Origin: Clostridia bacterium
GTDB taxonomy: Bacteria; Bacillota; Clostridia; Christensenellales; CAG-138
Assembly: GCA_036652795.1 (NCBI GenBank)
Contig: JAVVVD010000003.1
Coordinates: 42,864 to 106,863, forward strand
Direction of reading: 5' to 3'
Length of the DNA stretch: 64,000 nucleotides
Position 1 is the stretch's first letter, and every line of letters begins with the position of its first letter. The position numbers were made by a program, and so were the translations under genes. The notes under the pieces are model-generated. The model was not told the DNA's origin, did no database searches, and saw nothing but the letters and a program-made list of their open reading frames with translations. Positions 18,934-50,033 of this stretch are shown here, piece by piece.

Positions 18934-19009
18934 GCGGGAGTAGCTCATTCGGTAGAGCGCCGCCTTGCCAAGGCGGAGGTGGCGGGTTCGAACCCCGTCT
19001 CCCGCTCCA
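18934..19009 (+). tRNA. tRNA-Gly (anticodon GCC), CCA encoded
   Basis: Manual cloverleaf: acceptor GCGGGAG/CTCCCGC, D arm GCTC..GAGC, anticodon arm CCGCC-TTGCCAA-GGCGG, T arm GCGGG-TTCGAAC-CCCGT. Confidence 0.9.
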
Positions 19010-19270: not shown

Positions 19271-19346
19271 GGGTTGTTAGCTCAGCTGGTAGAGCACCTG
19301 ACTCTTAATCAGGGTGTCCAGGGTTCGAGCCCCTGACGACCCACCA
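19271..19346 (+). tRNA. tRNA-Lys (anticodon CTT), CCA encoded
   Basis: Acceptor GGGTTGT/ACGACCC, D arm GCTC-AGCTGGTA-GAGC, anticodon arm CCTGA-CTCTTAA-TCAGG, T arm CCAGG-GTTCGAG-CCCTG. Confidence 0.9.
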
Positions 19347-27362: not shown

Positions 27363-27380
27363 GCGTGTAAATGAATAGCT

Positions 27381-27640
27381 TGTGTATCTGCACAAATTGT
27401 GCTGGCGCGTATGCGCCAAGGGAACACGGATGCAAATTCCGGACTATCCCAGTAACCGTGAAGCGGACGAAATGGCAACAAGTCACTGTCAGTAGATGGG
27501 AAGGCGCCAAAGTAGGATGATGCTAAGTCGGGAAACCTGTTTACACACCAAAACTCCTGGGGATGGGATATCGCTTGCATAGATCATTATATTTCTGTGC
27601 GTACTGGGTTGCCCCTCACTCTTGGGAGGGCAGCTTTTTT
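27381..27640 (+). promoter_or_regulatory. cobalamin (B12) riboswitch with terminator expression platform
   Basis: Conserved blocks AAGGGAACACGGATGCAAATTCCGG, GTCACTG...GGGAAGGCGCC and a B12-box-like GCTAAGTCGGGAAACCTG. Candidate P1 is TGTGTA (27381)/TACACA (27542). Terminator TGCCCCTC..GAGGGCA plus TTTTTT lies at 27609-27640. Confidence 0.8.
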
Positions 27641-43628: not shown

Positions 43629-43790
43629 TTATTGCACAGTCAGTTTTTCCGCGGTCTTGGTGAATATATCCTTGATCTTACCGCTCATGGCTGTAAGCGC
43701 AATTATCACACCTATCGCCACCAGCGCGATAATCAGCCCGTATTCAACCATGCCCTGTCCGCTCTCATCCCTCAAAAACTGCTTCAACAT
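43629..43790 (-). CDS. flp: Flp-family type IVb pilin (53 aa; below the ORF-track size cut-off)
   Basis: Manual translation: MLKQFLRDESGQGMVEYGLIIALVAIGVIIALTAMSGKIKDIFTKTAEKLTVQ. The G/MVEY cleavage motif is followed by a hydrophobic helix. SD GGAGGA lies 8 nt upstream. Confidence 0.8.
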   Translation of the reverse strand: MLKQFLRDESGQGMVEYGLIIALVAIGVIIALTAMSGKIKDIFTKTAEKLTVQ

Positions 43791-43911: not shown

Positions 43912-44535
43912 CTATACTGCCTGAACCACCAGCAGAGCCACGGCTATAAACGGCCCCATAGGTATAATCTGTTTCACAGCCGCAGCCAGCGGAATGTTAT
44001 CCTGAGCAACGGTGTAAAGCAGTATAAGTCCTCCCATAATTGCAACGGCATACATACTGCCGGTTAGACCTGTACAAAATCCCATTGCTGCTGCCAGCTT
44101 AACATCCCCTGCACCCACATTTTTTTTTAGCAGCACCGGGGTTAAAAACAATATAAAGCAGCACACAAAGCCCAGCAGCGAGGATGTGAGCTTAAAACTT
44201 ATCAGTCCCGGCAGACCGAATGCCGCCGTTAGCGCCATTATCGCTATAACCATCTCGTTTGGAATTATGCGCTTGTGCGCATCTATCACCGCAATGGCCG
44301 TTGTGGCCACCAGCAACAACAACATGTACAGTAATCTCCACGATAATCCTGCACGCCACGCAAGCAAACCGCCTGCAATGGCCATTATTATGGGCAGACC
44401 GATACGCTCAATACGCTTCTGCTGGATCGCCATATCCCGCTTTTTTAGCAGTACCGCGCATAGCAGCATCATAGGGTACTTTAATGCCGCGCCAATCGCC
44501 GCGCTTCCAGTTATTATCAATATCTCTTTTATCAT
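43912..44535 (-). CDS. tadV: A24-family prepilin peptidase (TadV/CpaA)
   Basis: Trimmed to MIKEILIITGS (SD GGAGGA). Polytopic, with catalytic-Asp contexts AVIDAHKRIIPNE and GAGDVKLAAAMG. Confidence 0.8.
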   Translation of the reverse strand: MIKEILIITGSAAIGAALKYPMMLLCAVLLKKRDMAIQQKRIERIGLPIIMAIAGGLLAWRAGLSWRLLYMLLLLVATTAIAVIDAHKRIIPNEMVIAIMALTAAFGLPGLISFKLTSSLLGFVCCFILFLTPVLLKKNVGAGDVKLAAAMGFCTGLTGSMYAVAIMGGLILLYTVAQDNIPLAAAVKQIIPMGPFIAVALLVVQAV

Positions 44536-44554: not shown

Positions 44555-44750
44555 CAACAAAACGGTCCGGAAAAAACTCTCCGAACCGTAAATGCCTGCA
44601 TCGCGTACAACACAACGAACATACCCTTTGTCCAATGTATCGTACCTCAGAAAAGCGTCCTTCGTTCGGCAACTGGCAACCATAGGCTTGCACCCTTAGG
44701 CCCTGTAGCTTTGCGTCGCCCGTTTTCGCGGGTTATGCTTTTGACTAATG
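44555..44750 (-). promoter_or_regulatory. c-di-GMP-I (GEMM-I) riboswitch plus terminator-like hairpin in the tad operon leader
   Basis: Minus-strand aptamer (about 44746-44659): AAAGCATAACCCGCGAAAACGGGCGACGCAAAGCTACAGGGCCTAAGGGTGCAAGCCTATGGTTGCCAGTTGCCGAACG. Hairpin CGGTTCGG-N10-CCGGACCG plus TTTTGTTG lies at 44588-44555, just before the tadV SD. Confidence 0.8.
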
Positions 44751-44785
44751 GGAAGAAACGTTTTATTTATTTAATTGTATCCGTA

Positions 44786-45250
44786 TCAGTTGCCGGGATG
44801 TATCTGCGGTATTTCCACCTGCGGCTGGAAGGATCTAAGCCATGCCACAAAATCCACGGCCTTTGCATATAGCTCAAGCGCAAGCGCCTCGTCAACAAAA
44901 CGACTGCTTATATTCTTATATGAGAATGGATAGTCCGACATATAATAGAACATCGCATCCACCAGAAAATCTTCACACTCAGCCTTGCGTACCTCAAAGC
45001 GGACCACATCGGCCTCTTTTTTAAATTCATCACTATTAATTATCTTACTGAACAAAAAGTTAACATTATGCGTCTTTGGCGGTTCTGCATCCATGTAGTA
45101 TACGTACATGCTCTTGAGCTGACGCTCCACAGCTTGCTGGCATAAGAATGCAACATATACCCAGCGTTTACCGACTATCAACGCATCTATTGTTCCAAGA
45201 TCATAGTCCGAAAGCATTAACCAATAACCATATTTCTCAATGCGCTTCAT
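44786..45250 (-). CDS. HEPN-domain protein
   Basis: 154 aa. Classic HEPN pattern LSDYDLGTIDALIVGKRWVYVAFLCQQAVERQLKSMYVYY...KTHNVNFL. The ATG overlaps the HD-GYP stop (ATGA). Confidence 0.75.
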   Translation of the reverse strand: MKRIEKYGYWLMLSDYDLGTIDALIVGKRWVYVAFLCQQAVERQLKSMYVYYMDAEPPKTHNVNFLFSKIINSDEFKKEADVVRFEVRKAECEDFLVDAMFYYMSDYPFSYKNISSRFVDEALALELYAKAVDFVAWLRSFQPQVEIPQIHPGN

Positions 45251-46176
45251 TTTAAGCAGTCCCCATTTTCTTTCAGCACTCCATTTTCAGTCAGTTCAAC
45301 CAGTTTGTTTGTAACCACCTTATCAAATAGCTGGCTTAGCTCCTGCAATTCCTTTGCTGACTCCATAAATCCCTTTACTTCATTATAACCGCGATCAGAC
45401 GTCATAGCGTCAAACACATCCGCAACCGCAACTATCTTTGCAGGAAAACTTATATCATCGCCGCAAAGCCCCCTTGGGTAACCGCTCCCGTCAAGGCGTT
45501 CATGGTGATTATACGCCACTTCGGCTATGCGCTCACCGAAGCGCGGCTTCAACAGCCTTGCACTGTTCATAGGATGGCGTATTATCTCGCGATAGTCGCT
45601 GCGGGAAAGTTGCGACTTTTTTTTCAGCACCTCATCAGGTATATAGCATTTTCCAACATCGTGGAACAGTGAAGCTATCACAATATCATCTAGTGAAAGT
45701 CCCATGCAATATTCCTTAAGGCCTTCATACAATCTCATCGAATAGTGCATGACGCTGCAACTGTGCCTATATGTGTAATTATCTTTTTGGTTTATTTGAA
45801 TCAGTAGATTTTTAAGGTCGTTTTGAAAGCTGAACACAGAATCAAACATCGGCCTGTTTGTGATATAGAGCAATTTTGTCTCCACGCTTGTTTTAAGTAT
45901 TATCTCCTGTTTAAGCCCCATCACCTGAAATGATTCACCCGGTCCAAGGCGTACAGGTCCTTCGTCAAGCATAAGCTCCACTTCGCCCTCGTGTATGAAA
46001 AAAAACTCCATGGTATGGCTATCCTCAGCAGGTATCAACCACACCGCAGCCCCCGCTATAAGGGTCTGAGTCATTATCTCCACTTCATCCTGTTTAGCCA
46101 GCAATCTGATATTGCTTGTTGCAAAATCTGCGTTCAGGCCATCCGTATTCCGTTGGCTTATACAAATGCCTTCCAT
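45247..46176 (-). CDS. cupin-domain / HD-GYP phosphodiesterase
   Basis: ORF 45247..46272 trimmed to the ATG at 46176 (SD GGAG), which removes the overlap with the MNT gene. Cupin-like FFFIHEGEVELMLDEGPVRLGPGESF. HD-GYP motifs LFHDVGK and HHERLDGSGYPRGL. Confidence 0.85.
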   Translation of the reverse strand: MEGICISQRNTDGLNADFATSNIRLLAKQDEVEIMTQTLIAGAAVWLIPAEDSHTMEFFFIHEGEVELMLDEGPVRLGPGESFQVMGLKQEIILKTSVETKLLYITNRPMFDSVFSFQNDLKNLLIQINQKDNYTYRHSCSVMHYSMRLYEGLKEYCMGLSLDDIVIASLFHDVGKCYIPDEVLKKKSQLSRSDYREIIRHPMNSARLLKPRFGERIAEVAYNHHERLDGSGYPRGLCGDDISFPAKIVAVADVFDAMTSDRGYNEVKGFMESAKELQELSQLFDKVVTNKLVELTENGVLKENGDCLK

Positions 46177-46208
46177 AAAACGACTCCGTTCATAACAGGT
46201 GCGCCAAT

Positions 46209-46550
46209 CTATGCCGTCATAGGCACAGATATCTCGATGCCGAATGCTAAAATCTCCTCTATTATTCCGCATGGATCATCCAGCTCTGCCTCATTAAAAG
46301 CCTGTATCTGAATATCCATATCCGAACTAGAGCATATCCTAACCAATTGGCGATATTCGTCCAGCAGACAATGCTTATCCAAACTGAAGAATACCGCCAA
46401 ATCGACATCACTCTCACGCGTTTGCGTTCCCTTTGCACAAGAGCCAAAGAGAATGATACGCGATACGCCCGGCAAGCAGGCAATACTGTTCAAAAAGCCT
46501 GAACAACTATTACGTATTGATTCAGGTATGCGTTGCTGTTTGCCGACCAT
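46209..46550 (-). CDS. minimal nucleotidyltransferase (MNT, Pol-beta superfamily)
   Basis: Trimmed to the ATG at 46550 (SD AGGTG). Motif ILFGSCAKGTQTRESDVDLAVFF (GS...D.D). Confidence 0.75.
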   Translation of the reverse strand: MVGKQQRIPESIRNSCSGFLNSIACLPGVSRIILFGSCAKGTQTRESDVDLAVFFSLDKHCLLDEYRQLVRICSSSDMDIQIQAFNEAELDDPCGIIEEILAFGIEISVPMTA

Positions 46551-46578
46551 AATTTTGCACCTGCTTGACAAACCTAAA

Positions 46579-46977
46579 TCACACGTTCACTACGCGCAGT
46601 GGATCCACCATAACATACTGTCCATCGATATAGTACTCCACATATTCACATACGACCTTTGCACCGATAATATCAGCATAGATGAATACCGGCGTTATTA
46701 CAAGCTTAATCTTGAATTGCATCCACGCTATATCATTCCATGGCGTAGCTTGCGCATTCTTTACCAGTGCCTCAACGCGCTTGTTGGCTTGATCTACCAT
46801 ACGGATAAGTGTCTTCATCTCGATGCTGCCAGCATGACCTTTGTTGCCGGTCATCATCTCGATGTTGCTGTTGTAGTTTGCATATGCACCTTCATTGCCG
46901 CGCGCCATGGCGATGCTAGAAAGTGACATAACCAAAATTACAGCAACCAACAGGGTAGTAAACAGCTTTTTTTTCAT
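46579..46977 (-). CDS. small secreted protein, unknown function
   Basis: Trimmed to MKKKLFTTLLVAVILVMSLSSIAMA-RG (signal peptide). SD GGAGGAG lies 8 nt upstream. First gene after a c-di-GMP riboswitch. Confidence 0.6.
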   Translation of the reverse strand: MKKKLFTTLLVAVILVMSLSSIAMARGNEGAYANYNSNIEMMTGNKGHAGSIEMKTLIRMVDQANKRVEALVKNAQATPWNDIAWMQFKIKLVITPVFIYADIIGAKVVCEYVEYYIDGQYVMVDPLRVVNV

Positions 46978-47132
46978 TTCGAGCACTCCTCCTGCATTTG
47001 ATTTTAGTTGGGCCGGAGTTTATACACGAAGTGCCAACAAATTAAAAAACAGCCCGCCTTTTAATCTGCCAAGCTGCTGAAAATCGTACTTCCGCACCCA
47101 CAAAAAAAATCTGTGGTATCGGATTATACTTT

Positions 47133-47218
47133 GCTTTCGGCAACTGGCTGCCATAGACATTACGTCCGTAGGCCCTTTAGCTTCGCGTCACCCGTTTTCG
47201 CGGGTTTTGCCTCTTTCG
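47133..47218 (-). promoter_or_regulatory. c-di-GMP-I (GEMM-I) riboswitch aptamer
   Basis: Minus strand: AGAGGCAAAACCCGCGAAAACGGGTGACGCGAAGCTAAAGGGCCTACGGACGTAATGTCTATGGCAGCCAGTTGCCGAAAGC. It is collinear with the copy at 44659-44746 and with the GCAAA..GAAA..GACGCAAAGC..GGCC..GCC consensus. Confidence 0.8.
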
Positions 47219-47243
47219 TGGGGATAACTCCTTATCCGTCACC

Positions 47244-47272
47244 AAAATACCATAATTTGTACAAGCTGTCAA
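47244..47272 (-). promoter_or_regulatory. sigma-A-like promoter upstream of the second c-di-GMP riboswitch
   Basis: Minus strand: TTGACA, a 17-nt spacer, then TATTTT, about 25 nt before the aptamer. Confidence 0.45.
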
Positions 47273-47347: not shown

Positions 47348-48685
47348 TTATCGCCTGAATTCCACCCTTACCGATGTGCCAACGCCTACCTCGCTACTGA
47401 TGCTTATATTTGCGCCATGCACCTGTGCCGCATGTTTTGCTATTGATAGTCCAAGCCCCGTCCCGCCTGTTTCCTTGGAATGGCTTTTATCCGCGCGGTA
47501 GAAGCGCTCGAACACATGCGGTATATGCTCTGCCGATATACCAATGCCTGTGTCCGTTACCGTGAGCGTAACCGTCTCCTGTTTGCAAATCGTGCTTATC
47601 GTAACGCTGCCACCAGGCACATTGTATTTTATCGCATTATCGCACAAGTTAAAGAGCAATTCATCCAATACATGCGGTATGCCCTCTATCAGCGCAGGAT
47701 CGCCCTGCGTCAAAAGAATTACGCCGTGCTTTTGAGCCTCGTTGGCAAGGCGCGCGCATACATGTCGTGCCAGTGAATCAAGCTCCACGCTTTCCCACAC
47801 CATCGTGAGCCCATCGCCCTCATCCAGCCGCGATAGTCGCAGTATATCGTCCACAAGCAGCATAAGTCTGTTCGCTTCCTGATATATGCGGCCTGCAAAC
47901 CCCTGCATATCCTCTGGCCGTACAAGGCCATTCATCATGATCTCCGCAAAACCCGAGATCGAGGTAAGCGGTGTTTTAAGCTCATGTGAAACATTCGCGC
48001 TAAACTCTCTGCGGCTCTGTTCTGCCTGCTGCCTATCTGTTATATCTAGCATCAGTATTACCATGCCGCCCATTCCATTTTTTTTACCAACAGCGTTGGC
48101 AAGCAGCTGATAAGTGCGGCCACGCAGATCAAGTAACGACTCTGCGCCTCCGCTTTGCCTTACGCCCTCAACAACGCTTTGCAGCTCGCTTCCCCTATTT
48201 AGCATCAGTATCGACATGCCGACGCACAAGGCCGCATCAACGCGAAATATCTCCGCCGCGCGATCATTTATCGTCAATACATCCGCATTGCCATCCAGCA
48301 GTACCATACCCTCGCGCATGTTCTTTGTCACGGCGCCCCATTCCTGCTGTTTTTCAGCAAGCACGGCCATGCGCGCACGAATTTCCTGCTTCTGTCGCTC
48401 TATGCGCAGCAGCAGTGGGGAAAGCTCGTCATATGTATCATTATCCATTGGTGTGTCCAGATCAACGGCGTTTATCGGTGCTATTATCCGCTTTGCAATA
48501 GCCCTTGCCACTATAAGTAAAACCACCGCCATAGCGGCAAGCATCAGCGCTATGCATACCTGAGTACCCTCACGCGCCACCTGCGCTCCTATTGGGTCAT
48601 ACACCACTAACAGCACCAGCGCACCAGTGGCCAGCATCGTTAATAGCGCCGTTATAAATATGCTGATAAATATGCGCCTTCTCAT
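47348..48685 (-). CDS. phoR: PhoR-like sensor histidine kinase
   Basis: 445 aa. Two TM helices, a PAS-like region, H-box VSHELKTPLTSI and G2 box GGTGLGLSI. Lies in the pst/phoU operon. Confidence 0.85.
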   Translation of the reverse strand: MRRRIFISIFITALLTMLATGALVLLVVYDPIGAQVAREGTQVCIALMLAAMAVVLLIVARAIAKRIIAPINAVDLDTPMDNDTYDELSPLLLRIERQKQEIRARMAVLAEKQQEWGAVTKNMREGMVLLDGNADVLTINDRAAEIFRVDAALCVGMSILMLNRGSELQSVVEGVRQSGGAESLLDLRGRTYQLLANAVGKKNGMGGMVILMLDITDRQQAEQSRREFSANVSHELKTPLTSISGFAEIMMNGLVRPEDMQGFAGRIYQEANRLMLLVDDILRLSRLDEGDGLTMVWESVELDSLARHVCARLANEAQKHGVILLTQGDPALIEGIPHVLDELLFNLCDNAIKYNVPGGSVTISTICKQETVTLTVTDTGIGISAEHIPHVFERFYRADKSHSKETGGTGLGLSIAKHAAQVHGANISISSEVGVGTSVRVEFRR

Positions 48686-48686
48686 G

Positions 48687-49355
48687 TCAGTCCCCCAGCC
48701 GGTATCCCACTCCGCGCACAGTGTGTATCAGCTGCGCACAGCAGCCCAGCTTTCCACGCAGCGTTTGGATGTGCACATCCACAGTACGTGTGCCGCCGTC
48801 ATAATCATAATCCCACACCGTTTGCAGCAGATGCTCACGCGTAAACACTATATCGCGGTTCTGCATCAAAAAATGCAGCAGCTCAAATTCCTTATACGTA
48901 AGCAGCACATACTCGCCATCCACGCTAACTGTGTGCCGTTTCGTGTTCATACTAAGCTTGCCGCAGCTAAGGTTATCGTCAGTCTGTACCGTTACGGTGC
49001 GCCTTAGCATTGCGCGCACCCGCGCCACAAGCTCCATCATGCCGAATGGCTTGGTTATATAATCATCCGCTCCTGCGTCCAGCCCAGTCACTTTATCGTA
49101 TTCGCTCCCCTTTGCCGTAACCATTATTATTGGCAGCCCCGCTGTTTTGGGGTCGCTTCTGAGCCGTTTGAGTATGCACATCCCATCCTCGCCCGGCAGC
49201 ATTATATCCAGCAGTATTAGCTCCGGCATACATTCGCCACATGCGCACAAAAACGCCGCACCCTCGGCAAAGCCCATCGCGGGCAGTCCGGTCTGGTTCA
49301 GCGTATACACGACCAGGTCGCGTATATTGTTATCATCTTCTACATAATAGATCAA
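48687..49355 (-). CDS. phoP: PhoP/PhoB-type response regulator
   Basis: 222 aa, OmpR family (LLDIMLPGEDG; GVGYRLG). Adjacent to phoR and phoU. Confidence 0.9.
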   Translation of the reverse strand: MIYYVEDDNNIRDLVVYTLNQTGLPAMGFAEGAAFLCACGECMPELILLDIMLPGEDGMCILKRLRSDPKTAGLPIIMVTAKGSEYDKVTGLDAGADDYITKPFGMMELVARVRAMLRRTVTVQTDDNLSCGKLSMNTKRHTVSVDGEYVLLTYKEFELLHFLMQNRDIVFTREHLLQTVWDYDYDGGTRTVDVHIQTLRGKLGCCAQLIHTVRGVGYRLGD

Positions 49356-49379
49356 TATGACCTCCCATGGCGCATAACG

Positions 49380-50033
49380 CTATGCATCAAGTGCCTTGTG
49401 CTTACCGGTTATAGAGTATTCTACCCATTCGGCTATATTCTGCGCATGGTCGCCTATGCGCTCGAAATACTTTGCTATCATAAGCAGGTCAATAGCCTGT
49501 TCCCCATTGTTTTCGTTTTTGCCTATAAGCGCTATCAGTTCCATCTTTATCACATCAAACAGGTCGTCTATTATATCATCCATAGCTATTACCTTGCGTG
49601 CAAGCTCAACATCCTGCGCGACAAATGCGTCTATGCTGCTGCTCACCATCAGTATTGCCGCATCCGCCATCTGTGGCAGATGTTCAAGCGTTTTTATATA
49701 TGGCGTGCCCGCAAGATATATCACTATCCCCGCTATATCGGCCGCCTGATCCCCTATGCGCTCCATATCCGTTATCATTTTGAGCGCCGCAGATATCTGC
49801 CGCAGATCCCGTGCCACAGGCTGTTGTTGCAGCAGCAGCTTAAGGCACAGCGTTTCAATATCCCGCTCCTTCTGATCCACCTTTTGATCAAACTCTATTG
49901 CCCTGTTAGCCGCCTCAACATCCTGCTGTATCAGCGCATCTGATGTGCTTTGTATCGCGTGCTCTATCAGCGCACCCATCTCCGTAAGCTCGATTTTGAG
50001 CAGGCGAAGCTGTTCATCGAATTTGCTTCTCAT
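49380..50033 (-). CDS. phoU: phosphate signalling complex protein PhoU
   Basis: 217 aa with duplicated PhoU repeats ([11 protein letters not shown] / [11 protein letters not shown]). Confidence 0.9.

Follow-up and report, generated by a model that had tools for sequence, protein, structure and literature searches.

We have found that a four-gene operon, in which the gene for an HD-GYP phosphodiesterase stands between a minimal nucleotidyltransferase (MNT) gene and a HEPN gene, is conserved and vertically inherited in uncultured Clostridia. Here c-di-GMP signalling appears to have recruited one MNT/HEPN lineage: a phosphodiesterase gene stands permanently between the two partners, a c-di-GMP riboswitch always precedes them, and a Tad pilus operon is often connected to them. 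We give roughly even chances to the reading that the cassette is a c-di-GMP-repressed operon, with feedback from an active HD-GYP enzyme and with a domesticated MNT/HEPN pair as regulator. If this model is true, the cassette is an instance of toxin-antitoxin domestication that can be put to a concrete test, with a latch made of riboswitch and phosphodiesterase and perhaps a HEPN function of a new class, and it offers a natural comparative series of little-studied GEMM-I variants (G47 and A20) at orthologous positions, a series that could settle whether pocket variants alter ligand specificity.

Layout and inheritance of the cassette

In the window (the whole stretch of DNA analysed, 64,000 nucleotides) the four genes lie on the minus strand in the order signal-peptide (SP) protein (46977-46579; 132 aa, with an AGGAGG ribosome-binding site upstream), MNT (46550-46209; 113 aa, with a GSx10DxD motif), a 309-aa protein with a cupin-like N-terminal domain and an HD-GYP phosphodiesterase domain (46176-45247), and a HEPN protein of the classical PF05168 type (45250-44786; 154 aa), whose start overlaps the HD-GYP stop as ATGA. 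An earlier, sequence-only reading of this DNA had placed the genes at these same positions, and its junctions of 28, 32 and -4 nt (the last being the ATGA) were reproduced on recomputation; profile-HMM assignment agreed with its protein identities, finding Polbeta/NTP_transf_2 in the MNT, HD_5/HD in the HD-GYP protein and PF05168 in the HEPN. The promoter-like element and GEMM-I aptamer that it saw ahead of the cassette are both present. The former is a σ70-like promoter (TTGACA-17-TATTTT with a TG extension, 10/12 matches) at 47272-47244 on the minus strand, and its -10 element ends 18 nt upstream of the leader aptamer; since the promoter scan overall showed no enrichment over shuffles, this position is the main argument for the promoter.

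Clostridia genomes and metagenomes contain at least 26 non-identical loci with the order SP, MNT, cupin-like HD-GYP, HEPN (it is present in L004-L007, L084, L087, L138, L139 and about 25 metagenome loci), and this order is kept down to 43% HEPN identity. The same order in dozens of independent loci puts the arrangement far beyond chance, and when 17 complete, non-identical cassettes are compared, pairwise identity in any one of the four proteins tracks that in the others (r=0.74-0.90). In the HEPN tree the full order occupies the deepest branches, with loci that have only MNT and HEPN nested inside, and the only relatives with adjacent MNT and HEPN genes, L114 and L118, are derived. The interleaved order thus looks ancestral to the HEPN subfamily. 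Both the synteny survey and the tree speak against the HD-GYP gene being a recent insertion unique to one genome, and the survey points to a conserved, co-inherited arrangement. The HD-GYP and HEPN genes meet at a junction of -4 nt in 14 loci, and nearly all the remaining junctions fall within -17 to +7 nt, so that the translational coupling proposed from the window, as judged by junction length, extends to almost all loci. The HEPN subfamily occurs essentially only in the cassette context. The HEPN is found both without the HD-GYP and without the MNT, and hence no single partner is indispensable. The sequence-only reading knew of no HEPN-MNT system with an embedded HD-GYP, and our literature search agrees, in that it returned no description of a module joining HEPN, HD-GYP and nucleotidyltransferase, and HEPN and HD-GYP occurred together in a single paper, on an unrelated topic.

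Two riboswitch variants and the Tad/Flp operon

The leader aptamer (47131..47226, minus strand; Rfam match 47135-47220) has as its best Rfam match RF03167, c-di-GMP-I-GGC, at 63.4 bits (gathering score 59), and scores 97.1 bits with a purpose-built covariance model. Position 47 of its pocket, which contacts the ligand, is G in place of A (GACGC-G-AAG), and G20 is kept; the G47 variant did not figure in the sequence-only reading. We know of no established ligand for G47 GEMM-I variants, and binding of c-di-GMP by this aptamer might be absent altogether. The ligand-contacting nucleotides of GEMM-I aptamers are G20, A47 and C92 (PMC4744006). Each of the 32 distinct cassettes whose 5' DNA reaches far enough has a GEMM-I aptamer upstream, the MNT-HEPN-only versions included, so that the placement of the cassette behind such a riboswitch, first noted in the window, is general.

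Downstream of the leader aptamer is an intrinsic terminator (47044..47077, minus strand; GCAGCUUGGC...GCGGGCUGU followed by U6; dG -11.0), the 5' arm of which and the 3' strand of the aptamer, GCCAGUUGCC, are complementary and can form an antiterminator; this pairing appears in the minimum-energy fold of the leader. The terminator (GGCAGCUUGGC...GCAGGCUGC-U6) is kept in nearly all orthologous leaders. When the aptamer was enforced during folding, the terminator formed only under that constraint in 13 leaders, and one leader behaved oppositely; the automated test was noisy, with many leaders giving the same call with and without the enforced aptamer. The conserved expression platform therefore looks like a transcriptional OFF switch, a polarity taken from thermodynamic folding and complementarity alone. 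The GEMM-I riboswitch operons known in Clostridia, such as those with the class I OFF switches of Clostridioides difficile, share the aptamer fold and likewise have terminator-based platforms, but here two pocket variants flank one cassette and an MNT/HEPN pair is among the regulated genes.

The second aptamer (44660..44754, minus strand; Rfam match 44665-44749) lies 36 nt past the HEPN stop and heads a Tad/Flp pilus operon; neither this aptamer nor the operon had been noticed in the sequence-only reading. It matches RF01051 at 64.8 bits (gathering score 35), scores 91.8 bits with a purpose-built covariance model, and has A20 and A47 in its pocket, so that, with G47 upstream and A20 downstream, both aptamers are pocket variants. 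A20 GEMM-I variants bind both c-di-GMP and cGAMP (PMC6140456), and the aptamer fold is common to this aptamer and the bispecific GEMM-Ib aptamers of C. beijerinckii (Cbe 1-2). An intrinsic terminator with a 12-bp stem and a U-tract follows (44562..44589, minus strand), and its arm GGUUCGG is complementary to the aptamer strand GCCGAAC; this antiterminator spans just 6-7 bp, which makes the polarity here less certain than that of the leader. The first gene of the operon encodes a prepilin (A24) peptidase (43912..44535, minus strand; 207 aa, with a GGAGG ribosome-binding site), for which we favour the start at 44535 over that at 44622, as the longer reading frame would include the terminator. 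It is followed by a Flp pilin gene (43629-43790) and then by TadE, TadG, RcpC, a CpaE-like gene and CpaF.

The combination of second aptamer and Tad genes recurs in at least 11 loci (13 other distinct loci have the same aptamer placement). In the window and in L087, L089, L095, L098, L108, L109, L121, L128, L131 and L135 the cassette is followed directly by an A24 peptidase-Flp-TadE operon, and the MNT-HEPN-only loci L119, L120 and L124 also have such an operon directly downstream; in L116 the cassette is divergent from it. Since the cassette is found away from Tad genes as well (L004, L006, L007, L084, L086 and L139), the link to the pilus is frequent and not obligatory.

Phosphodiesterase, nucleotidyltransferase and HEPN

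The HD-GYP protein is matched by the Pfam models HD_5 (106.6 bits) and HD (66.8 bits). H172, D173, H201, H224, H225, E226, G232, Y233, P234 and D253 are invariant in 35 homologues, and K176 and G230 are likewise invariant in the alignment. The closest solved structures are V-cGAP3 (5z7c; E=6.5e-37), PmGH (4mcw; 8.4e-30) and PA4781 (4r8z), with which the protein shares all of the HD...H...HHE...D and GYP residues, and from this complete set of catalytic residues we infer that it is an active cyclic-dinucleotide phosphodiesterase. It differs from these enzymes in having obligate operon partners (SP, MNT and HEPN) and in its N-terminal sensor, which is cupin-like rather than a REC domain or a tandem HD-GYP. 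Cupin_2 scores 25.1 bits there, under the gathering score of 27.2, a precomputed PF07883 hit exists for roughly one third of the listed homologues, and the canonical cupin metal-binding His residues are not conserved in the homologue alignment. The MNT is recognised by Polbeta (E=3.9e-10) and NTP_transf_2 (E=2.9e-9), and its motif GSCAKGTQTRESDVD conforms to GSx10DxD, with the residues G, S, K and SD.D at least 90% conserved in 33 relatives. Against the NCBIfam MntA_antitoxin equivalog model it scores 39.8 bits, under the cutoff of 60.

The HEPN protein matches PF05168 at 37.9 bits (cutoff 22), the only match in the Pfam search, which gave none to DUF86, and neither its sequence nor the alignment of its relatives contains R-x(4-6)-H (Rx4-6H). 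The sequence-only reading was correct in noting D in place of R in the RYP segment, and this is a property of the whole subfamily: Asp106 of 'SDYPF' is invariant in 36 members, whereas distant HEPNs have 'RYP', with Arg in at least 90% of 32 aligned sequences that include the distant relatives. PF05168 belongs to the KNTase_C clan, and the protein has the four-helix HEPN fold: an AlphaFold model (pLDDT 90.8) gave Foldseek matches at probability 1.00 to 1wol (ST0689), 1ufb (TT1696), 2hsb (AF0298) and 3o10 (the sacsin HEPN). With the classical MNT-associated HEPNs (TT1696 1ufb, ST0689 1wol, AF0298 2hsb and TM0613 1o3u) the protein shares the fold (TM 0.56-0.76) and W10, D17, E42, K46, H61 and Y107; E42-x3-K46, which may be equivalent to KNTase residues, and H61 are kept from distant relatives into the subfamily. 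It departs from them in the subfamily-specific R-to-D change, an insert of about 20 residues (67-90), the invariant loop SDYPFSYKNI..RF and the c-di-GMP-tied genomic context. The segment S105-D-Y-P-F-S-Y-K-N113 of this loop is invariant and flexible and contains the conserved Y107 and Y111. HEPN is the best conserved of the four proteins, with a mean pairwise identity of 0.72 against 0.61, 0.54 and 0.52 in the 17 complete non-identical cassettes; it has no PADLOC hit, and neither the plasmid nor the phage collections searched contain a relative of it.

These observations bear on the proposal, made from the sequence, of a toxin-antitoxin pair with a HEPN RNase as its effector, which they do not support: Rx4-6H is missing, the family is PF05168 and not DUF86/HepT, and Asp occupies the Arg site. 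The conservation of the protein also argues against a toxin, as does its persistence in two lineages with a wrecked MNT. In an ordinary toxin-antitoxin system the toxin could not be kept without the antitoxin, yet in L086 and L105 the MNT survives as frameshifted remnants and the HEPN is full-length with all invariant motifs. A canonical adjacent bicistronic MNT-HEPN pair was also rejected, as the HD-GYP gene (45247-46176) separates the partners. According to a passage in PMC3710099 that cites a genome-wide screen, some HEPNs without Rx4-6H were toxic, and so the missing motif does not exclude toxicity. The Type VII HepT/MntA systems (Shewanella SO_3166/3165, Aphanizomenon, Legionella) resemble the cassette in having a GSx10DxD Pol-beta-type MNT gene 5' of a small HEPN gene on the same strand, and conserved tyrosines near the HEPN C-terminal helix. 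The cassette, in contrast, encodes a HEPN that is of the PF05168 and not the DUF86 type and lacks the RX4HXY RNase motif, has a 930-nt HD-GYP gene between the partners that is translationally coupled to HEPN, is chromosomal, vertically inherited, under a c-di-GMP riboswitch and often leads a Tad pilus operon, and contains a HEPN that outlives the MNT in some lineages. A toxin-antitoxin reading of the cassette is thus poorly supported; what is seen points to a signalling module of domesticated origin more than to a toxin system. The view that MNT-HEPN pairs can be domesticated for regulation or substrate binding is well established (PMC3710099).

Competing readings and a proposed circuit

One alternative retains the HEPN as a growth-arresting effector (an RNase or RNA binder) that the MNT switches off by AMPylation and the HD-GYP enzyme re-arms, by removing the modification or degrading a nucleotide signal, with the whole gated by c-di-GMP. 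HD domains such as that of the GlnD-type uridylyl-removing enzyme are able to cleave nucleotidyl-protein phosphodiester bonds by hydrolysis, and GlnD, CCA-adding enzymes and RelA/SpoT unite, as here, an NTase, an HD-superfamily phosphohydrolase and a helical KNTase_C/HEPN-clan module, although these are single polypeptides with known substrates, whereas the cassette spreads these parts over three separate genes and has an HD of the GYP subtype. The intact GSx10DxD of the MNT and its resemblance to MntA, the tight coupling of HD-GYP to HEPN, and Y107 and Y111, candidate acceptors in the invariant HEPN loop, fit this account too; for MNT-associated HEPNs the acceptor has been suggested to be a conserved C-terminal tyrosine (PMC3710099). 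We nevertheless consider it unlikely, given the absence of Rx4-6H and the invariant Asp at the family's Arg, an HEPN that stays intact beside a defunct MNT in L086 and L105, where an unneutralised toxin should be lethal, its evolution as the slowest of the four genes, unlike conflict toxins, and its lack of relatives in the plasmid and phage collections searched; the HD-GYP signature, moreover, is that of a complete canonical cyclic-dinucleotide phosphodiesterase.

Quite improbable, in our view, is a split KNTase-like enzyme in which the HEPN binds substrate and NTP, the MNT/HEPN pair modifies a small molecule by nucleotidylation or else produces or changes a nucleotide signal, and the HD-GYP handles the same nucleotide pool. 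The HEPN of sacsin, its structural neighbour 3o10, is reported to bind nucleotides, and E42-x3-K46 and H61 have been retained, but the KNTase/ANT(4') C-terminal domains (1kan, 6p01) are weak Foldseek hits (E about 3, TM 0.38), the RYP arginine, a plausible phosphate ligand, is Asp, survival of the HEPN without the MNT in two lineages is odd for an obligate subunit, and the neighbourhoods examined hold no candidate substrate genes. This account returns to the first interpretation of MNT-associated HEPNs, as substrate-binding subunits structurally related to the kanamycin nucleotidyltransferase C-terminal domain (PMC3710099). MNT-HEPN pairs are in general very abundant and mobile (PMC3710099), and c-di-GMP turnover genes are commonly preceded by GEMM-I riboswitches (PMC7266159), so an ordinary addiction module might have been split by, or have inserted itself around, an HD-GYP gene of a generic kind under riboswitch control, the two being functionally unconnected. 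That such a coincidence would keep its order to 43% HEPN identity in at least 26 non-identical loci, with four co-diverging genes, conserved translational coupling, a riboswitch retained in the MNT-HEPN-only derivatives and a HEPN subfamily essentially confined to this context, is hard to credit, and we regard it as very improbable.

In the c-di-GMP-repressed operon that we favour, c-di-GMP bound to the leader aptamer would hold GCCAGUUGCC, which otherwise pairs with the terminator 5' arm, as conserved complementarity and folding suggest; the result would be termination, with the operon transcribed at low c-di-GMP. HD-GYP enzyme made only at low c-di-GMP would push the level lower still, and under this double-negative latch the pilus genes and the second riboswitch would also stay in the low-signal state. 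The feedback loop through the phosphodiesterase that the sequence-only reading had envisaged is plausible, but with a platform that looks like an OFF switch it would not be homeostatic negative feedback. More speculatively, the MNT and HEPN would be a domesticated nucleotidyltransferase and its non-RNase HEPN partner built into the circuit, with translational coupling keeping HEPN in a fixed ratio to the phosphodiesterase. The MNT would nucleotidylate a tyrosine in the HEPN loop S105-N113, or a target presented by the HEPN, and so tune the HEPN in nucleotide or RNA binding or in control of the phosphodiesterase. A further possibility, tentative and on balance doubtful, is that the R-to-D HEPN is a non-catalytic regulator of a new kind that binds a nucleotide (c-di-GMP, pGpG or cGAMP) or the leader RNA, its state set by MNT nucleotidylation and the co-translated HD-GYP. 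In concert with the G47 and A20 riboswitches, whose dinucleotide ligands may differ, this HEPN would then make up a two-signal latch that decides whether the Tad pilus is produced. Were this true, a domesticated toxin-antitoxin pair would have been turned into a second-messenger signalling device.

Lastly, the SP protein, small and predicted to be secreted, had no Pfam match in a profile search. It has a Sec signal peptide (AxA site), its C-terminal ~80 aa are conserved, and it accompanies the cupin-like HD-GYP even in loci without MNT and HEPN.

Organization of the cassette and its proteins

The cassette comprises four minus-strand genes whose layout, first made out from the sequence alone, was borne out when the ORFs and sequence were re-read. 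These encode a signal-peptide protein, SP (46977-46579; 132 amino acids), with a Sec-type signal peptide ending IAMA-RG and no Pfam family; a minimal nucleotidyltransferase, MNT (46550-46209; 113 amino acids; Pfam Polbeta E=3.9e-10, NTP_transf_2 E=2.9e-9), with the motif GSCAKGTQTRESDVD (GSx10DxD); a cupin-like protein with an HD-GYP domain, HD-GYP (46176-45247; 309 amino acids; HD_5 106.6 bits, HD 66.8 bits); and HEPN (45250-44786; 154 amino acids; PF05168 37.9 bits against a cutoff of 22). For the cupin-like part, Cupin_2 reached 25.1 bits, short of its gathering score of 27.2. Recomputed junctions are, as claimed, 28, 32 and -4 nt (an ATGA overlap), and the promoter and GEMM-I aptamer ahead of the cassette are likewise present on the minus strand: TTGACA-17-TATTTT with a TG extension at 47272-47244, and the aptamer at 47135-47220 (best Rfam model RF03167, c-di-GMP-I-GGC, 63.4 bits against a gathering score of 59). 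The terminator of this leader (riboswitch 1) lies at 47077-47044 (minus strand). We note that just upstream of the promoter is a phosphate-regulon block (47348-50033, minus strand) encoding a pst ABC transporter, PhoU, a PhoB-like response regulator and a PhoR-like histidine kinase. The other cassette loci do not retain this block, and several carry genes for an APH kinase and a GH3 glycosidase in its place. Elsewhere in the window, and unrelated to the cassette, are a cobalamin riboswitch (71.5 bits; 27367-27558, plus strand) and two tRNA genes (18934-19006 and 19271-19343, plus strand).

A second GEMM-I aptamer (44665-44749, minus strand; RF01051, 64.8 bits) lies 36 nt past the HEPN stop, and its 12-bp terminator (riboswitch 2; 44589-44562, minus strand) is followed by a Tad/Flp pilus operon encoding an A24 prepilin peptidase, Flp pilin, TadE, TadG, RcpC, a CpaE-like protein and CpaF. 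HEPN and riboswitch 2 have no terminator between them, so cassette transcription is likely to run on into the pilus operon. The longest ORF for the A24 peptidase (minus strand), with a start at 44622, would include the riboswitch 2 terminator; translation probably begins from the ATG at 44535, which follows a GGAGG site and gives 207 amino acids, in agreement with two of three gene calls.

To judge from its sequence, HD-GYP is very likely a working phosphodiesterase for cyclic dinucleotides: its metal-ligand and GYP residues are all invariant among 35 homologues, and the solved structures nearest to it are those of V-cGAP3 (E=6.5e-37), PmGH and PA4781. The catalytic motif of MNT is conserved in 33 relatives, and with the NCBIfam MntA equivalog model the protein scores 39.8 bits, below the cutoff of 60. 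A HEPN profile had no match among PDB sequences even at E<1; the AlphaFold model of HEPN (pLDDT 90.8) is matched by Foldseek, with probability 1.00, to the classical MNT-associated HEPNs ST0689, TT1696 and AF0298 and to the sacsin HEPN. HEPN lacks the Rx4-6H motif, and it has W10, D17, E42, K46, H61 and Y107 in common with distant relatives. The caveat that this HEPN has Asp in place of the Arg of the ..RYP.. segment holds, and every member of the subfamily has Asp there. The invariant stretch S105-DYPFSYKNI..RF118, with two invariant tyrosines, forms a lower-confidence loop in the model and is probably flexible.

SP has 19 detectable homologues and a conserved stretch of 80 residues at its C terminus, with a highly conserved motif, TPWNDV..., GAxVVCEYVEYYIDGQYVLVDPLRVV. 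Its AlphaFold model has a pLDDT of 71, and Foldseek matched it to nothing below E=0.8. A resemblance to CpxP, at 22 bits where the cutoff is 238, lies far below threshold, is not trusted and is probably meaningless. Even in Kosmotogaceae and Fusibacter SP is found beside a cupin-like HD-GYP, so SP is the phosphodiesterase's older partner.

Recurrence, co-divergence and ancestry

We drew loci from species-representative genomes, from metagenomes (by HEPN profile search) and from exact-protein look-ups, located the four proteins in these loci by iterated HMM searches and tblastn, and measured junctions by a tblastn-anchored method. The proposed synteny survey shows that MNT-HD-GYP-HEPN recurs: at least 26 non-identical loci have the full order SP-MNT-HD-GYP-HEPN, their HEPNs being 81% to 43% identical to that of the window. 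In 14 loci HD-GYP and HEPN meet at -4 nt (ATGA), and almost every other locus falls within -17 to +7 nt. For the 17 cassettes that are both complete and non-identical, mean pairwise identity comes to 0.52 for SP, 0.54 for MNT, 0.61 for HD-GYP and 0.72 for HEPN, and the pairwise identities of the four co-vary (Spearman r 0.74-0.90), indicating that the genes have diverged together as one unit. HD-GYP homologues number in the thousands, the best 120 being about 305-310 amino acids long and 48-65% identical. HEPN belongs to a small, tight family (196 matches at 64-81% identity), and a search of 1.84 billion representative proteins returned only 6 clusters below E=1e-30. Two HD-GYP homologues suspected of lacking HEPN turned out to have the full cassette.

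Partial architectures also occur. SP and HD-GYP are found without MNT or HEPN in more distant lineages, among them Christensenella, Kosmotogaceae and Fusibacter (loci L008-L010, L012, L013 and L015), and our own covariance model found no GEMM-I match in these loci. Conversely, loci L114/L115, L118 and L119/L120/L124/L127 retain MNT, HEPN and the riboswitch without SP or HD-GYP, and in L119, L120 and L124 the MNT-HEPN pair immediately precedes a Tad operon. In a neighbour-joining tree of HEPN rooted on proteins with Arg in the ..RYP.. segment, which has no support values and is indicative only, every one of the deepest Asp-type branches has the interleaved order and the loci with only MNT and HEPN nest inside them. 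The interleaved order is therefore probably ancestral to the subfamily, with HD-GYP and SP lost later; the cassette is thus neither unique to this genome nor, on the tree, the product of a recent HD-GYP insertion. Two further loci, L086 (4671-5041) and L105 (1294-1502), keep only frameshifted pieces of a decayed MNT gene (such as ..YRLLARFARAF..TPCGMIKGKEID..). Their HEPN is full-length and preserves all the invariant motifs, and the adjoining HD-GYP is intact too; L105 lacks the SP gene as well.

The MNT-HEPN spacers of L119 (4665-5000), L120 (4688-5000) and L124 (2444-2766) are conserved noncoding DNA of about 330 nt. A decayed HD-GYP was considered for them, and tblastn found no significant remnant; nor did they match any Rfam family. 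Conserved blocks (GCUGUCGCUACGGGGGCAA) recur in them, as does an extended hairpin that is likewise conserved, GCCGAUGCCGG..AAUCUCAG..UUGAGAUU..CCGG.ACCGGC, and, judging from these three sequences, may be a structured RNA not yet described.

Aptamer variants and the expression platform

The GGC variant of GEMM-I was reportedly defined by Weinberg et al. in 2017 (PNAS). Rfam's GGC and canonical labels do not track position 47: the aptamer of locus L004 (4989-5099) is labelled GGC and has A47, and that of L005 (1293-1392) is labelled canonical c-di-GMP-I yet has G47. We therefore built our own covariance model from nine aptamers, which found 54 aptamers in 62 sources, and read position 47 directly. 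A GEMM-I aptamer lies upstream of every cassette with enough 5' DNA. These amount to 32 distinct sequences, all with G20, of which 25 have A47 and 7 have G47. The window's leader is among the latter, with GACGC-G-AAG against the canonical GACGC-A-AAG. G20, A47 and C92 are the ligand-contacting nucleotides of GEMM-I (PMC4744006). That A47 and G47 both occur at orthologous leaders suggests that the G47 variant probably still responds to c-di-GMP. Among the 14 distinct aptamers directly after HEPN, A20 is found in half (7/14) and G47 in one. The window's second aptamer (taken as 44660-44754, minus strand) has A20, familiar from cGAMP or bispecific riboswitches of the GEMM-Ib type; A20 confers binding of both c-di-GMP and 3'3'-cGAMP, and the clostridial aptamer Cbe 1-2 is bispecific (PMC6140456).

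We note three other arrangements of paired aptamers. In L011 (2018-2286), from a Clostridiales MAG, a tandem GEMM-I pair (69 and 82 bits) precedes an SP-like ORF and a cupin-like HD-GYP, with MNT and HEPN absent on the available contig. In L116 (2594-2945) aptamers lie divergently, back to back, one heading the cassette and the other an opposite-strand Tad operon (A24 peptidase, Flp). L118 (290-632) has a similar divergent pair, and no Tad gene maps to its short contig.

Nearly all leaders have a terminator, GGCAGCUUGGC...GCAGGCUGC-U6, about 40-80 nt past the upstream aptamer. The 5' arm of this terminator can pair with the 3' strand of the aptamer, GCCAGUUGCC, to which it is complementary, and precisely this antiterminator helix appears when the window leader is folded to minimum energy without constraints. 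When aptamer pairs were enforced, 13 leaders gained a terminator not formed in the free fold and one, the minus-strand aptamer of L118, showed the opposite (ON) folding, the rest being uninformative; automated terminator detection is noisy, and we use it as supporting evidence only. From these folds we read riboswitch 1, with moderate confidence, as a transcriptional OFF switch. In the riboswitch 2 terminator one arm, GGUUCGG, is conserved and complements the GCCGAA(C/U) strand of the aptamer, which suggests the same polarity, at lower confidence because the antiterminator is short.

A proposed circuit and its alternatives

In the circuit we propose, the operon would be transcribed when c-di-GMP is low and HD-GYP would then drive the signal lower still, from which we infer a double-negative latch. 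More speculatively, the MNT/HEPN pair, made in fixed ratio with the phosphodiesterase, might modulate this circuit or its output. The sequence-only reading instead suggested that MNT, HD-GYP and HEPN could be writer, eraser and effector of one module, which we regard as unlikely. Somewhat less likely again is that MNT and HEPN together make a split KNTase-like enzyme. That the genes are coincidental neighbours is very improbable; their order is conserved and they have diverged as a unit. The familiar interpretation of HEPN/MNT as a toxin-antitoxin pair does not fit this cassette either: the HEPN family is the wrong one, the RNase motif is absent and the partners are non-adjacent. Nor does HEPN look like a toxin, being the slowest-evolving of the four genes, kept where MNT has decayed, and without relatives in plasmid (72,556) or phage (50,697) records. 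PADLOC matched MNT only to generic MNT candidate models (PDC-S09) and HEPN to none, so we do not file the cassette as a defence system.

The sequence-only reading knew of no HEPN-MNT system with an embedded HD-GYP, and none was found in the literature we searched; there, no paper brings HEPN, HD-GYP and nucleotidyltransferase together, HEPN with HD-GYP appeared only on an unrelated topic, and HEPN with c-di-GMP only in other systems. We read the cassette as an HEPN/MNT module, probably domesticated, that is gated by a riboswitch, interleaved with a phosphodiesterase and linked to Tad pili; it is not categorically new, since every component belongs to a known family. Anantharaman et al. proposed that MNT-HEPN pairs have been repeatedly domesticated, with inactive HEPNs becoming substrate-binding or regulatory partners of the nucleotidyltransferase, or regulators that bind RNA (PMC3710099); the present cassette matches that pattern and adds to it a fixed association with c-di-GMP control.
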